From positions 1 to 7,358 of IMG/VR virus record IMGVR_UViG_2703718800_000016: 7,358 bases of DNA; one strand, 5' to 3'. The first letter of the stretch is position 1. Each line of letters starts with the position of its first letter. Shown here in pieces: positions 2,886 through 6,199 of this stretch. The translations under genes were made by a program, and so were the position numbers. The notes below the pieces were generated by a model. The model ran no database searches and was not told where the DNA came from. It saw nothing but the letters and a program-made list of their open reading frames with translations. The DNA is from a virus. Its lineage: Duplodnaviria > Heunggongvirae > Uroviricota > Caudoviricetes.

Positions 2886-3171
2886 AAACCGCTTGCAAAA
2901 AATTATCACGGGGCTGTATGCTTCCCGCGTCACCCACATGGTGACCGGGTTTGACAGCCTGAATACTACAGCGGACAGCCGCTTACATTCCGATATGCGG
3001 TTTTTTTGTGTCCGTAAACCTACCCATACCCGCATTATGGCGGGGCGTAACGGGGGAGCCTTTGCGCTCGCTGGTTCCTGTAGTGCCAGTCTGTCAACCC
3101 TGTTACGTCTCGCCACCATGTTTGACAGCGTAGTAGCGAGACTCCTTAATTTCACTACAGGAGCCTTTCAC

Positions 3172-3345
3172 ATGGCTGTATCCACACGCCCTTATTTTAT
3201 CTGGCGCTTCATGCAGTGCCATGAAAAACAAACCTCACTCTTTACCGTCACGGCTGCCACTGAGCGCGAAGCACGCGCGCAGCTGCCGCACGCACATCTG
3301 ATTTTTGTCGCCCGTATTCGTCAGGGGGAAACCTATGCACAATAA
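3172..3345 (+). CDS. Host cell division inhibitor Icd-like protein (paralog 2; may instead be the C-terminal domain of a longer ORF starting at 2878)
   Basis: 57-aa product MAVSTRPYFIWRFMQCHEKQTSLFTVTAATEREARAQLPHAHLIFVARIRQGETYAQ aligns with paralog 1 (FIWRF / VTAATEREAR / FVARIRQG). AGGAG at 3159-3163 lies 8 nt before ATG 3172. A candidate promoter TTGACA (3122-3127) - 17 bp - CTTAAT (3145-3150) has a perfect -35 but a weak -10. The same frame is open back to ATG 2878, so a 155-aa fusion cannot be excluded. Confidence 0.6.
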   Translation: MAVSTRPYFIWRFMQCHEKQTSLFTVTAATEREARAQLPHAHLIFVARIRQGETYAQ

Positions 3346-3565
3346 AACCACACCGGACGCAGCAGAAGAAGCAATGCAAATACTGATACGTGCGCTCGTT
3401 GATGTTACCCACATGGTGGAGATTATGGAGAGAAAATCACAGTCGGAGCACGACAAAAGAAAACTTAAAACAATAAAAATAATTGCCAAAAACTCGCTGA
3501 TAAAAGTTACAGACATCCTTAATGAGGACATTAAAAGAATAAGGGAGAAAATTTGTGATGCATAA
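3335..3565 (+). CDS. Hypothetical small protein (AT-rich cassette gene 1; lysine-rich, predicted helical)
   Basis: 76 aa: MHNKTTPDAAEEAMQILIRALVDVTHMVEIMERKSQSEHDKRKLKTIKIIAKNSLIKVTDILNEDIKRIREKICDA. Shine-Dalgarno AGGGGG (3323-3328) 6 nt before ATG 3335; overlaps the stop of icd-like paralog 2 by 11 nt. The antisense ORFs here are hydrophobic low-complexity artifacts. No motif recognised. Confidence 0.55.
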   Translation: MHNKTTPDAAEEAMQILIRALVDVTHMVEIMERKSQSEHDKRKLKTIKIIAKNSLIKVTDILNEDIKRIREKICDA

Positions 3566-3785
3566 AATCCCTTTTGAAGTATTAATCCACTCTGAAAACG
3601 CATTAATTAAAGCACGCGAAATGAATGCGTTGTTAATTAAATTAATTGAAGTGCCGGAAGGTGGTGAGGAATCAGGTGTATTAATGTTTGCAGCCATTCA
3701 GACATTACTATCGCCTGTTATTGATGAACTGGATAAGGCAATGGCAATTCACGAAAATAATAACGCGCCCCACACCGGAGAATAA
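3558..3785 (+). CDS. Hypothetical small acidic protein (AT-rich cassette gene 2)
   Basis: About 75 aa from ATG 3558 (the track starts at GTG 3555): MHKIPFEVLIHSENALIKAREMNALLIKLIEVPEGGEESGVLMFAAIQTLLSPVIDELDKAMAIHENNNAPHTGE. GGGAG lies about 10 nt upstream. There is an 8-nt start/stop overlap with gene 1 (ATGCATAA), suggesting translational coupling. Strongly acidic. No motif recognised. Confidence 0.55.
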   Translation: MHKIPFEVLIHSENALIKAREMNALLIKLIEVPEGGEESGVLMFAAIQTLLSPVIDELDKAMAIHENNNAPHTGE

Positions 3786-3790
3786 AAATA

Positions 3791-4090
3791 ATGAAACTTA
3801 AATATTCTGGCTTAACTGCCAGTGGCAACACTCACCCTAAATTTACGCGCGGTGATATTTACCGCGACCAGTACGGCGGCACGGTAATGATTAAGGGCGT
3901 GGCGGGACGGTGCGTAACTTACCGCCGTGAAGGTTACGAATATGATTGCGTGATGCCTGTTTATCAGTTCCGGCGTGATTTTTCTCTGGTACAGGCAGCG
4001 CCCCGCAGTAAACCAACCAGCAGGGAGAAAGCACGCGCCAATATTCAGGAAATAAGAAAGATGTTGAATGTATTCAGGGGTAAAAAATGA
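3791..4090 (+). CDS. Hypothetical small protein translationally coupled to the primase gene
   Basis: 99 aa (MKLKYSGLTASGNTHPKFTRGDIYRDQYGGTVMIKGVAGRCVTYRREGYEYDC...). GGAG lies 10 nt before the ATG. Its stop overlaps the primase start (ATGA at 4087-4090). GC content is normal, about 53% in a hand-counted 60-nt sample. By position it is analogous to the small genes preceding alpha in the P4 replication operon; that is inference only. Confidence 0.6.
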   Translation: MKLKYSGLTASGNTHPKFTRGDIYRDQYGGTVMIKGVAGRCVTYRREGYEYDCVMPVYQFRRDFSLVQAAPRSKPTSREKARANIQEIRKMLNVFRGKK

Positions 4091-5835
4091 AACTTGCACC
4101 GAACGTAAAAAAACAACCACGCGGAATAAAACACAAAGACACAGAGGTAATTATTTTCGCGGGTAGTGATGCGTGGGCACATGCAAAACAGTGGCAGGAG
4201 CAGGACGGCCCCGCATCCGGCGATAATGTGCCGCCTGTGTGGATTGGGCCAAATCAGCTTGCCGAACTTGATGCACTGAAAATTGTTCCTGATGGAAAAA
4301 AACGCGTAAGGCTGTACCAGGCCGGAGAACTGGATTTGGTGGAGACCAAAAAGATTGGTCAGAAGCTGGCGGCGGCAGATATTCAGGACGCAAATTTTTA
4401 CCCCGAAGGAATGCACGTCCAGAAGTGTGAAAACTGGCGGCGCTATCTGAATGCTGAGCGTGAAAATATTGCCGCAGGGCTTACCATGCCGGAGCAGAAA
4501 AATACGCAACTGGCACAAATGGCAGACAGTGAGCGCGCGCAGCTGCTTGCCGAGCGCTTTGATGGCGTTTGTGTGCATCCGGAAAGTGAAATCGTTCACG
4601 TATGGCGCGGCGGGGTATGGTGTCCGGTCAGCACAATGGAACTTAGCCGCGAAATGGTGGCGATCTATTCAGAGCACAGGGCCACTTTCAGCAAGCGCGT
4701 AATCAATAACGCCGTGGAAGCGTTAAAAGTTATTGCCGAACCAATGGGCGAGCCGTCCGGCGATTTGTTGCCGTTCGCCAATGGTGCGCTTGACCTGAAA
4801 ACGGGGGAATTTTCCCCGCACACGCCGGAGAACTGGATCACCACGCACAACGGCATTGAGTACACGCCACCAGCACCAGGGGAGAATATATGCGACAACG
4901 CGCCAAACTTTCATAAATGGCTTGAGCACGCAGCCGGAAAAGACCCGCGCAAGATGATGCGTATATGTGCCGCGCTGTACATGATTATGGCGAACCGGTA
5001 CGACTGGCAGATGTTTATTGAGGCCACCGGAGAGGGCGGTAGCGGTAAAAGTACATTCACGCACATAGCCAGCCTTCTGGCAGGGAAACAGAACACGGTA
5101 AGCGCTGAAATGACCTCACTTGATGATGCTGGTGGACGTGCGCAGGTTGTCGGGAGTCGTCTTATCGTCCTGGCTGACCAGCCGAAATATACAGGCGAAG
5201 GAACGGGCATCAAGAAAATCACGGGCGGCGACCCCGTGGAAATAAACCCGAAATATGAGAAGCGTTTTACGGCGGTAATCAGGGCGGTGGTGCTGGCTAC
5301 CAACAATAACCCGATGATATTCACCGAGCGGGCCGGAGGTGTGTCACGCCGTCGGGTGATTTTCCGGTTCGACAACATTGTAAGGGAGGACGAAAAAGAC
5401 AAGGATTTGCCGGAGAAGGTCGCGGCTGAAATCCCCGTAATTATCCGTCGCTTGCTGGCTAATTTTGCCGACCATGAAAAGGCACGGGCTTTATTACTGG
5501 AACAGCGCGACGGTGATGAAGCTCTGGCAATAAAGCAACAGACGGATCCGGTTATTGAGTTTTGCCAGTTCCTGAATTTTCTGGAGGAAGCACGCGGCCT
5601 GATGATGGGCGGCGGTGGCGATTCAGTGAAGTACACGACCAGAAACAGCCTTTACCGCGTCTATCTGGCGTTTATGGCATACGCAGGCAGGAGCAAACCG
5701 CTAAACGTGGCTGAGTTCAGCAAGGCCATGAAGCCAGCGGCAAAAGTTTACGGACATGAATATATTACGCGGAGAGTTAAGGGAGTAACGCAGACCAACG
5801 CAATTACAACTGATGATTGTGACGCGTTTTTATAA
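4087..5835 (+). CDS. Replication initiator: primase-associated SF3 helicase (P4-alpha / D5-like C-terminal NTPase; PICI Pri-Rep-like)
   Basis: 582 aa. Walker A GEGGSGKST and Walker B-like RLIVLADQP lie in the central region, matching the phage/plasmid primase P4-family C-terminal helicase domain. The classic P4 alpha primase motif EGYATA is absent, so the N-terminal domain is of uncertain type. Shine-Dalgarno GGGG 6 nt before the ATG. It is immediately followed by the iteron cluster. Confidence 0.9.
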   Translation: MKLAPNVKKQPRGIKHKDTEVIIFAGSDAWAHAKQWQEQDGPASGDNVPPVWIGPNQLAELDALKIVPDGKKRVRLYQAGELDLVETKKIGQKLAAADIQDANFYPEGMHVQKCENWRRYLNAERENIAAGLTMPEQKNTQLAQMADSERAQLLAERFDGVCVHPESEIVHVWRGGVWCPVSTMELSREMVAIYSEHRATFSKRVINNAVEALKVIAEPMGEPSGDLLPFANGALDLKTGEFSPHTPENWITTHNGIEYTPPAPGENICDNAPNFHKWLEHAAGKDPRKMMRICAALYMIMANRYDWQMFIEATGEGGSGKSTFTHIASLLAGKQNTVSAEMTSLDDAGGRAQVVGSRLIVLADQPKYTGEGTGIKKITGGDPVEINPKYEKRFTAVIRAVVLATNNNPMIFTERAGGVSRRRVIFRFDNIVREDEKDKDLPEKVAAEIPVIIRRLLANFADHEKARALLLEQRDGDEALAIKQQTDPVIEFCQFLNFLEEARGLMMGGGGDSVKYTTRNSLYRVYLAFMAYAGRSKPLNVAEFSKAMKPAAKVYGHEYITRRVKGVTQTNAITTDDCDAFL

Positions 5836-5849
5836 TTTTTTGTAAAAGC

Positions 5850-6073
5850 CCTCTACCCCATCTACCTGAATGAAATAAACGCATATTATTCAACATGATA
5901 AGTGGGTAGAGGGCTAGGTAGAAGGCTAATAAAACCTCTCTACCTCTTCTACCATGATTAAGATCGTTTGTGAGGGGCGGGTAGAGGATGGGTAGAGGGC
6001 CACGAAAGCCCTCTACCCATCTGAAAGCCGCGCCATTACTGACATGAAAGATGATTAGGTAGAGAGGTAGAGG
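5850..6073. repeat. Iteron cluster / putative origin of replication
   Basis: Eleven copies of the 8-mer GGTAGAGG or its complement CCTCTACC (core GGTAGA), arranged as adjacent pairs of alternating orientation at 5850, 5859, 5905, 5917, 5937, 5946, 5980, 5991, 6010, 6058 and 6066. They are separated by AT-rich spacers such as 5867-5904. Two longer units AAAGCCCTCTACCC-CATCT recur at 5845 and 6005. The cluster sits directly downstream of the primase/helicase stop. Confidence 0.7.
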
Positions 6074-6199
6074 AGGTGCACCACAACCTAAAACTTTTTA
6101 AACACGAGGGTAAAAATAAAAATGCACACATCAGGAAGATTTAACAAATCACTCAAAAAACGCAGAGACAGAACAGAACCGAAATATCGCGCGTTAGAC

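Follow-up and report, generated by a model that had tools for sequence, protein, structure and literature searches.

Two small overlapping genes that lie between an icd-like gene and rgdR in an E. coli satellite are a rare, AT-rich, divergent allele set of genes resident in this slot. In the window, by which we mean the whole 7,358-nt stretch of DNA that was analysed, these genes (designated ORF1 and ORF2) are separable, translationally coupled members of the satellite's early operon. The ORF2 type behaves like a core gene with deep alleles, since 75 of 77 related loci have it and it recurs in a second cfPICI clade (32 loci). We tentatively propose that both products act as small protein-binding modulators of a variable phage or host partner.

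A coupled gene pair in the early operon of a satellite of the P4/PICI type

The window is an E. coli satellite of the P4/PICI type, with the order integrase, AlpA, C4 antisense RNA, icd, ORF1, ORF2, RgdR (DUF4222), primase, iteron origin and SSB. Pfam matches identified an integrase, an AlpA-type regulator and a primase-replicase, all in the same orientation, as is characteristic of Gram-negative PICIs and P4-like satellites of about 8-17 kb. The nearest full copy of the element is about 8.7 kb long, is inserted in adeP and is without capsid or terminase genes, although related elements with both exist, and the best whole-window match is 97.7% identical, in 4 pieces. A C4-type antisense RNA (the P1/P7/P4 immunity RNA) is encoded on the + strand at 3033-3120 (Rfam RF01695, 72.3 bits against a gathering score of 45), 5′ of the second icd paralog, and a1/b1-like target sites of this RNA lie at 2916-2965 on the same strand (RF03163, 42.1 bits, just under the gathering score of 46.7). 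Many relatives that do have icd show no C4 RNA at the gathering score, so C4 gating is not general. We also considered a further C4 RNA target within ORF1, as a 15-nt repeat, GT(C/T)ACCCACATGGTG, occurs at 2929 and 3404 and the C4 3′ end finds a complement at 11 of 12 positions. The site in ORF1 was outside the top 12 in RNA duplex scanning, and the a1 copy is found only in the window, L001 and L007; chance or coding constraint is the preferred explanation.

Icd-like paralog 2 (57 aa, + strand, 3172-3345; NCBIfam NF033153, E 3.6e-15) ends in an 11-nt overlap (ATGCACAATAA) with the start of ORF1 (+ strand, 3335-3565), which in turn overlaps ORF2 (+ strand, 3558-3785) by 8 nt (ATGCATAA, 3558-3565). 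Both genes start with ATG and are preceded by Shine-Dalgarno-like sequences, GGGGGA for ORF1 and AAGGGAG for ORF2, and RefSeq annotates the same two coding sequences in identical copies (WP_000551676.1 and WP_000549006.1). The conserved right-hand flank of the slot is a 99-aa RgdR-family protein (DUF4222; + strand, 3791-4090; PF13973, E 2e-23), an orthologue of which is named rgdR in RefSeq, with RGD at residues 20-22 and a C-terminal tail rich in lysine and arginine. It is followed on the + strand by a D5_N/DUF5906 primase-helicase (4087-5835) whose residues 141-571 share 40% identity with P4 alpha, and then by a cluster of GGGTAGAGGGC iterons at 5843-6077, which is likely the replication origin. 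The position of the iterons places the origin outside the AT-rich cassette and the slot contains no repeat family, leading us to reject the AT-rich block as an origin.

The original prediction of two overlapping + strand frames with ribosome-binding sites and an 8-nt overlap is borne out by these features, with the exception that only ORF1 encodes 76 aa, ORF2 being one residue shorter at 75 aa. It had also described ORF1 as lysine-rich and ORF2 as acidic. ORF2 has a net charge of -7, and ORF1 does contain 15 lysine and arginine residues, yet its net charge is merely +1.8; the other slot proteins are small, helical and acidic, with net charges of -2 to -7. It is barely conceivable that these frames are non-functional and lie in an AT-rich spacer. 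While the signs of translation are those of sequence features, a pair of open runs of 75 codons or more arose in only 0.06% of shuffles of the 451-nt composition, homologues down to 75% identity retain the 76- and 75-aa lengths, and the ribosome-binding sites and coupling overlaps speak against a spacer as well. Furthermore, dN/dS is 0.21 across 14 distinct ORF2 alleles. The ratio rises to 0.43 in the central loop of ORF2, and selection is purifying overall, not diversifying. Among the ORF2 alleles dS is 0.48, against 0.19 for RgdR from the same loci.

The AT-rich block is an allele of a modular slot

Exact GC content reproduced every hand-counted 60-nt sample of the earlier description, with 0.317 at 3421-3480, 0.317 at 3481-3540 and 0.333 at 3601-3660, against 0.533 at 3841-3900 and 0.617 at 4201-4260. 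ORF1 (0.377) and ORF2 (0.382) differ from every other gene of the window (0.48-0.57), and the lowest-GC 450-nt stretch of the entire window is 3366-3815 (0.36; window mean 0.498, sd 0.046). The block had been said to begin at the icd stop. However, GC is 0.477 in the first 86 nt of ORF1 and 0.424 in the last 125 nt of ORF2, and thus the AT-rich core (3421-3660, GC 0.325) begins about 85 nt from the start of ORF1. In other versions of the slot, GC content is 0.41-0.47. Recent import from a low-GC donor was rejected, as no donor was found and the closest relatives are all from E. coli, Shigella or E. albertii; one remote cluster of relatives is in Yersinia.

To place the pair among its relatives, the interval from icd to RgdR was compared across the 77 related elements or loci; a scan of genome contigs with the primase gave 3 loci. 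The slot proved variable and modular, as had been suspected, ranging from 229 to 1266 bp and from 1 to 5 small genes with junctions at gene boundaries. An ORF2-type gene (phrog_2196, F2) is the last gene of the slot, directly before rgdR, in all 75 loci that have it. ORF1 is always accompanied by ORF2 (13 of 13 loci), whereas ORF2 occurs without ORF1 in 7 loci, being alone in 6 and preceded by another gene in 1, which makes the two genes separable modules. In L055 and L065, ORF1 is precisely absent through a deletion of 3329-3554. Exchange of both genes is seen in a blastn segment map against the closest element, L003, whose primase is 96% identical. Homology ends 30 nt into ORF1 and is regained 15 nt before the ORF2 stop, defining an exchanged block at 3366-3770 (+ strand). 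Between versions of the slot, ORF1-type and ORF2-type alleles are 30-40% identical, with the adjacent RgdR at 84-97%. Neighbouring slot genes are also found fused, commonly as F1.1-F1.2 proteins of 150-155 aa, and also as the F1.1-F2 proteins P0120-P0122.

These comparisons do not uphold the idea of a one-off foreign two-gene insertion. The ORF1 and ORF2 families occupy the slot in nearly all relatives, and the cassette is therefore a divergent allele of a resident gene pair; nothing but its sequence version and low GC is unusual in the window. The original prediction had added that core regulators, as opposed to cargo, would appear as the same two genes at the same position and with similar GC in all related elements. 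The ORF2 type follows this pattern in its distribution, but ORF1 is optional and the low GC is particular to this version.

Sequence families and predicted folds

ORF1 gave a full-length profile match to phrog_5146 (E 4.8e-6, residues 1-70 of 76), of which it is the divergent allele F1.4, and matched a local HMM of the common F1.1 alleles at E about 1e-15. Its full-length alignment with phrog_5146-type alleles has L44, A51, L55, I61 and D65 invariant. ORF2, allele F2.2, matched phrog_2196 over residues 1-68 of 75 (E 2.1e-8) and is linked by HMMs to F2.1 (1e-8), F2.3 (1e-5) and a 72-aa protein of KppS-Ant (4.5e-11). The common slot alleles match the same two families at 2.3e-42 and 8.4e-42, respectively. 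Both families have no assigned function, and ORF1 and ORF2 are outlying AT-rich members that are about 30-35% identical to the common alleles. As expected from the report of no recognisable motif, neither protein matched Pfam (E <= 0.1) or NCBIfam, and in PADLOC-DB 0 families were matched by ORF1, ORF2 or the DUF4222 protein. When 1.84 billion representative proteins were searched with a profile, the only relatives to emerge were 12 small, stand-alone proteins of 34-84 aa, and domain fusions were thus set aside as a clue to function. Plasmids gave no match, phage records gave a single distant match in the cfPICI vB_KppS-Ant, and the Yersinia homologue used as a query found nothing in viral contigs.

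Both proteins are predicted by AF2 to be soluble, antiparallel two-helix hairpins of about 75 residues. The model of ORF1 (pLDDT 88) has helices at 7-34 and 38-75, and that of ORF2 (pLDDT 80) has helices at 6-30 and 37-68. The alignment behind the ORF2 model was shallow (75-99% identity) because the concatenated ORF1 and ORF2 profile search listed mostly common ORF1-type alleles. Fold comparison, which had been suggested as a route to functional relatives, led only to generic hairpins, with nothing below E 0.1 for both models in the PDB and for ORF1 in BFVD. Among the top PDB matches, none of them significant, are designed hairpin heterodimers and hairpin-dimer ferritins.

Candidate functions of the slot proteins

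We speculate that the predicted hairpins pair, with themselves or ORF1 with ORF2, into four-helix bundles, and that such bundles would serve as stoichiometric protein binders. By analogy with P4 epsilon and P1 Ant, the proteins would be made only once the early operon of the satellite is on. The most likely target would be a regulatory protein of the helper or of a co-resident phage, giving an anti-repressor-like activity, or otherwise another phage or host protein. Deep allelic divergence between conserved flanks suggests that the target is variable. Also consistent with modulators of this kind are the position next to icd, as for P4 epsilon and P1 ant, the modularity of the slot, purifying selection, the hairpin folds, the fusions and the co-occurrence of the two genes. 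Since neither protein resembles epsilon, Ant or any characterised protein in sequence or fold, the proposed function is drawn from position and evolutionary pattern. Against it, a housekeeping role within the cycle of the satellite itself would explain the near-universal ORF2 type equally well, purifying selection acts on ORF2, the published description has Gram-negative PICIs induced by their helpers via AlpA (PMC6092414) and C4 gating is not a general feature.

Such a housekeeping role is possible, although we consider it doubtful. The ORF2 type, with ORF1 as an accessory, would run the satellite's early programme and leave the helper untouched, and might act on RgdR, on the N-terminal domain shared by the replicases, on AlpA-dependent transcription or, like Cnr, on copy number. 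The constant position before rgdR and purifying selection on ORF2 fit this role, as does the second cfPICI clade with its fixed order of icd, 64-aa gene, F2-like gene and replicase, where the F2-like gene directly precedes or overlaps the replicase. Acidic ORF2 also adjoins RgdR, a protein with a lysine/arginine-rich tail and weak non-specific DNA binding (PMC3378721). All replicase types have their first 60-140 residues in common, and there is some association between subtypes, with F2.2 paired with replicase type R1 in 17 of 20 loci. However, one ORF2 subtype can be found with different replicase types in both clades, an observation that also led us to reject a replicase-specific partner role, and ORF2-like genes occur without RgdR. 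Similarity to Cnr/DUF5375 is absent, and alleles at 30-40% identity beside flanks at 84-97% make an unusual pattern for a protein with a housekeeping role and conserved partners.

Roles in conflict with the host or with other phages fit the data less well. Small acidic early proteins could counteract a defence or nuclease of the host or of a prophage, for instance by mimicking DNA, when replication starts or the satellite enters a new cell. The acidic, helical character of the slot proteins other than ORF1, the early operon position and the counter-defence-like variation in gene number and alleles point in this direction. We nevertheless find such a role quite unlikely, given that no known anti-defence protein or fold was matched, that a hairpin of 75 residues would make a small DNA mimic, that a universally present family is not what counter-defence cargo typically looks like, and that the variable hotspots described for P4-like satellites are located elsewhere (bioRxiv 10.64898/2026.02.27.708500). 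A toxin-antitoxin-like, abortive-infection or defence pair, as had been proposed, is highly unlikely. The genes are small, overlapping and opposite in charge, and the finding that ORF1 never occurs without ORF2, whereas ORF2 can stand alone, would fit a toxin and its antidote, respectively. Yet PADLOC, Pfam and NCBIfam were all without a match, and the models are plain soluble hairpins with no enzymatic or membrane fold. On the + strand there is no promoter-like site ahead of the pair, which sits inside a long operon, and several unrelated upstream genes partner ORF2-type genes. Neither a known type II family or fold nor an obligate, autonomous pair was found. Toxin-antitoxin, defence and replicase-specific roles are all disfavoured.

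Returning to protein-binding modulators, we hypothesize a more specific version, which we regard as unlikely. Here the hairpin proteins of the slot would be previously unrecognised specificity determinants of Gram-negative PICIs and cfPICIs, with every allele or additional copy recognising a different regulator from a helper or a co-resident phage. They would work as anti-repressors or helper-manipulating factors whose fold is unrelated to that of P4 epsilon. If so, the contents of the slot would determine the phages open to exploitation or awakening by a satellite. Part of how these elements communicate with their helper phages is known, AlpA being the activator. Our analysis shows that, at the site taken in P4 and P1 by anti-repressor functions, there is a compact slot that recombines and encodes uncharacterised small proteins; it separates the near-universal ORF2 type from the optional ORF1 types and gives exact swap boundaries. 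If ORF1 and ORF2 are ordinary internal regulators, the result is a routine annotation of two hypothetical proteins.

Comparison with known systems

The closest parallel in gene order is P4, where the icd ORF is followed by epsilon (8-nt overlap), orf151 (8-nt overlap), cnr and alpha. As anticipated from the small helper-manipulating genes of P4, ORF1 and ORF2 match the position of epsilon, which derepresses the helper, and orf151; they lie directly after an icd ORF with overlapping starts and stops, 5′ of a small gene and an alpha-type primase, and a C4-type RNA is upstream in both elements. ORF1 is the gene that directly follows and overlaps icd, by 11 nt where P4 has 8 nt. Epsilon and orf151 differ in size, at 95 and 151 aa, and epsilon hardly varies (97-100% conservation in 78 of 80 P4-like loci), in contrast to the highly variable slot of the window. 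Homology to epsilon, orf151 or cnr was rejected, with no Pfam match (E <= 0.1), no BLASTP alignment and local HMM E values above 1; the epsilon family PF25738 detected P4 epsilon itself at 4.2e-50. Cnr (orf106, DUF5375), a regulator of copy number encoded next to alpha, likewise is a small protein between icd and the primase. In the window, however, the primase-proximal position belongs to RgdR, and Pfam and local HMMs showed no similarity of ORF1 or ORF2 to Cnr/DUF5375, the kind of replication-control homology that would have pointed away from cargo.

P1 Ant is a far larger protein than ORF1 or ORF2, and neither of these matched an antirepressor family in Pfam. The immI operon of P1 and P7 (C4 antisense RNA, icd, ant) nonetheless resembles the window, where the C4 RNA with its a1/b1-like targets precedes icd on the same strand and the next gene is coupled to icd. 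In P1, the C4 RNA and Icd control the expression of Ant (PMC8201110). Unlike immI, the operon in the window runs on into replication genes, as does that of P4.

The description of Gram-negative PICIs is that the helper induces them through AlpA, not that they act as inducers of their helpers (PMC6092414). In the publications consulted on these PICIs and on cfPICIs we found no functional description of the small genes of the slot. The PICIs and cfPICIs EcCICFT073, EcCIEDL933/CP-933C, EcCIMP1 and vB_KppS-Ant share with the window an integrase, AlpA, icd/ash, primase, SSB, PerC and RgdR. The nearest full copy of our element differs from cfPICIs in having no capsid or terminase genes, while vB_KppS-Ant, like the window, carries an ORF2 homologue, which is immediately 5′ of its primase.

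Two AT-rich genes in a P4/PICI-type satellite

The AT-rich region holds two plus-strand genes, ORF1 (3335-3565, 76 aa) and ORF2 (3558-3785, 75 aa), which share an 8-nt overlap, ATGCATAA, and are each preceded by a Shine-Dalgarno-like run. ORF1 in turn overlaps the stop of icd paralog 2 by 11 nt. Coordinates and overlap are as originally predicted, although that prediction gave both proteins 76 residues. RefSeq annotates the same two CDS, labelled hypothetical proteins, in the identical copies carried by E. coli S19-651. Only 0.06% of shuffles at the same composition gave two open runs of 75 codons or more, and dN/dS across 14 distinct ORF2 alleles is 0.21. These ORFs are not products of chance, and the tests make a non-coding reading highly improbable.

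Exact GC values reproduce the earlier hand counts for all five samples (0.317, 0.317 and 0.333 inside the genes; 0.533 and 0.617 in the flanks). Gene GC is 0.377 for ORF1 and 0.382 for ORF2, with all other window genes at 0.48-0.57, and the 450-nt stretch with the lowest GC in the window, 3366-3815, stands at 0.36, about 3 SD under the mean. The low-GC core is 3421-3660. The block had been predicted to start at the icd stop, which does not hold, since the first 86 nt of ORF1 have a GC of 0.477. Homologue searches found no low-GC donor for either gene.

As originally assumed, and as its capsid-forming relatives bear out, the element is a P4/PICI-type satellite. Its genes run from a P4-type integrase, an AlpA-like regulator, an oppositely oriented YlcI/YnfO gene, an ash remnant and two Icd-like genes through ORF1 and ORF2 to a DUF4222 protein, a D5_N/DUF5906 primase, an iteron cluster, SSB and a PerC-family gene, the last assigned from how near-identical copies are annotated. 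Terminase, capsid and portal genes are present in many relatives, which are therefore capsid-forming PICIs (cfPICIs). Over residues 141-571 the primase shares 40% identity with P4 alpha. Eight or more copies of GGGTAGAGGGC / GCCCTCTACCC lie just 3′ of it, at 5843-6077, in both orientations, and are likely an iteron-type origin. [quoted passage not shown] Replicases following rgdR in relatives (window 4087-4500; loci L008-L087) are of at least four types (582, 466, 714 and 601 aa), with the first 60-140 residues in common and the remainder different.

Among complete RefSeq E. coli genomes there is no identical copy of the window; the best match is S19-651 (97.7% over 98% of the length), where a copy of the element of about 8.7 kb interrupts adeP. 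The icd-to-PerC block occurs twice in that genome (L001, 550997-559575; L007, 2670340-2678466) with identical protein accessions and different integrases, one copy adjoining an e14-like prophage at the icd locus and the other inside adeP. The same record also holds a third copy of the cassette.

A resident slot with exchangeable small genes

We compared 80 viral-contig loci whose RgdR is 84-97% identical to that of the window, and measured the slot from icd stop to rgdR start in the 77 with both flanks, including the window, the two S19-651 copies and the closest element, L003. The slot spans 229-1266 bp, with one to five small genes drawn from a handful of families: F1.1 (phrog_5146), F1.2 (phrog_24341, plus the C-terminal half of phrog_2512), F1.3 and F1.6 (phrog_1478), F1.4 (ORF1), F2.1 (phrog_2196), F2.2 (ORF2), F2.3 (phrog_5796) and F3 (phrog_340). 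None is present in Pfam, all lack an assigned function, and the published accounts consulted give no function to the slot's small genes. The most frequent layout is [F1.3] F1.1 [F3.1] F1.2 F2.1; 13 loci have the window's, [F1.3 or F3.2] F1.4 F2.2, and six have F2.2 by itself. An F2-type gene comes last, directly 5′ of rgdR, in 75 of the 77. ORF1 is always accompanied by ORF2 (13/13 loci), and ORF2 occurs without ORF1 in seven. Slot versions without the ORF2 allele have a GC of 0.41-0.47.

In a second clade, made up of 32 Klebsiella-type cfPICI loci, icd, a gene of 64 aa, an F2-like gene and replicase follow one another in fixed order. A 62-64 aa family with consensus LD.A.YK..ASSLF..ILE, distinct from the other slot families, separates icd from the ORF2-like gene in L168-L199, in vB_KppS-Ant and in a Morganella morganii P4-like element whose alpha primase is full-length. 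Conservation of this family is 88-97% in most loci and 69% in one; the ORF2-like gene beside it varies from 54 to 99%.

Homology to L003, whose primase is 96% identical, ends at 3365, 30 nt into ORF1, and returns at 3771, 15 nt ahead of the ORF2 stop, so the exchanged block is 3366-3770. ORF1 is exactly deleted in L055 and L065 (3329-3554 missing), the icd end is joined to a point 16 nt ahead of ORF2 in L009, and an extra gene is inserted 5′ of ORF1 in L024 and L011. ORF1 and ORF2 are therefore separate modules recombining at gene boundaries. Alleles of either family are 30-40% identical between versions, with flanks at 84-97%; dS within the ORF2 allele is 0.48, these same loci give 0.19 for rgdR, and dN/dS in the ORF2 central loop is 0.43. 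In F1.1 and ORF1 the first ~25 residues are constant and the remainder variable. These versions are old alleles under purifying selection, reshuffled by recombination, and are neither fast-evolving nor decaying.

The feature is thus a rare, AT-rich allele of a modular slot for small genes that is resident in E. coli PICI/P4-type satellites, built here from two uncharacterised families of predicted hairpin proteins. The original prediction had seen a candidate foreign accessory cassette inserted in the icd-primase operon. Its observation is confirmed and its interpretation partly supported: the same families occupy the same position in relatives, which counts against it, while deep alleles, variable gene number and higher GC elsewhere count for it.

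C4 RNA and a possible icd insertion or duplication

The interval 2916-3120, between the icd paralogs, is a P1/P4-type RNA immunity region, with a1/b1-like targets at 2916-2965 and a C4 antisense RNA (Rfam RF01695) at 3033-3120 scoring 72.3 bits against a gathering score of 45. A sub-threshold IsrK-like segment also falls within it. C4 RNA scored in P4, the Morganella element and L065 as well, and did not reach the gathering score in many relatives (L003, L013, L024, L042, Klebsiella-type cfPICIs). Both icd paralogs carry a 24-nt direct repeat at their 3′ end (2847-2870 and 3304-3327), and the two copies flank a 457-bp unit of a1/b1, C4 RNA and icd paralog 2. With this unit missing from L003, L013 and L042, the second icd and C4 look like a tandem insertion or duplication.

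A 15-nt repeat, GT(C/T)ACCCACATGGTG, occurs in the a1 target (2929-2943) and in ORF1 coding sequence (3404-3418), where it is 11/12 complementary to the C4 RNA 3′ end. RNAduplex did not rank this duplex as outstanding, and the pair is not conserved in other loci.

Homologues and predicted structure

Pfam, NCBIfam and PADLOC returned no match to either protein, and plasmids none. PHROGs gave full-length but weak matches to families without assigned function (ORF1, phrog_5146, 4.8e-6; ORF2, phrog_2196, 2.1e-8). Homologues at 75% identity or more are confined to Escherichia and Shigella (24 clusters for ORF1, 95 for ORF2). An ORF2 profile found only 12 relatives among 1.84 billion representative proteins, all stand-alone and of 34-84 aa, the most distant named one from Yersinia enterocolitica. 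Phage records held a single distant ORF2 homologue (37.5% identity), directly 5′ of the primase in the cfPICI vB_KppS-Ant. With group HMMs, ORF1 is a full-length homologue of F1.1 (E ~1e-15) and ORF2 is homologous to F2.1 (1e-8), F2.3 (1e-5) and the KppS-Ant protein (4.5e-11); F1.2, F1.3 and F3 are unrelated to these families and to one another.

AlphaFold2 predicts antiparallel two-helix hairpins for ORF1 (pLDDT 88; helices 7-34 and 38-75) and, from a shallow alignment, ORF2 (pLDDT 80; helices 6-30 and 37-68). Foldseek found nothing under E 0.1 in PDB for either model or in BFVD for ORF1; the top non-significant matches were hairpins forming four-helix bundles, among them designed heterodimers and encapsulated ferritins. 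Most slot proteins, ORF2 included, are acidic (net charge -2 to -7), and ORF1 is near neutral (+1.8). Adjacent slot genes are also naturally fused: F1.1-F1.2 fusions (150-155 aa, phrog_2512) are widespread, and F1.1-F2 fusions (152-155 aa) occur in one to three contigs each (fusion examples are P0120-P0122, P0147 and P0161). Such fusions hint that neighbouring hairpins may act together.

Possible role and comparison with known systems

ORF1 and ORF2 are icd-coupled genes of the early operon, modular and allelic, with predicted hairpin folds. Because of their P4/P1-like position and allele pattern, we tentatively favor their being small protein-binding modulators that would act on a variable phage or host partner. 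Caution comes from Gram-negative PICIs, which have been described as helper-induced through AlpA (PMC6092414), from the lack of similarity to epsilon, Ant or Cnr in Pfam, BLASTP and HMM comparisons, and from C4 RNA being undetectable in many relatives. The main rival, a doubtful one in our estimate, is that the ORF2 type is internal, serving the satellite's own regulation or replication. That type is near-universal, as such a role would suggest; ORF2 subtype is only loosely tied to replicase type, and the same subtype accompanies different replicases in both clades, which argues against a replicase-specific partner. We rank an anti-defence role below this, as unlikely, and family, fold and co-occurrence tests leave a toxin-antitoxin or defence function very unlikely.

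The feature is a variant of an already known kind of operon and not a new system, and the slot offers a clean, testable locus. P4 has epsilon, which encodes its helper derepression protein, overlapping the 3′ end of the icd ORF, and then orf151, cnr and alpha; despite their dissimilarity to epsilon, ORF1 and ORF2 are the positional equivalents of epsilon and orf151. P1 encodes its antirepressor, Ant, after icd, with C4 RNA and Icd controlling it (PMC8201110), and ORF1 and ORF2, while unlike Ant in sequence, hold its place after icd, 3′ of the C4 RNA.
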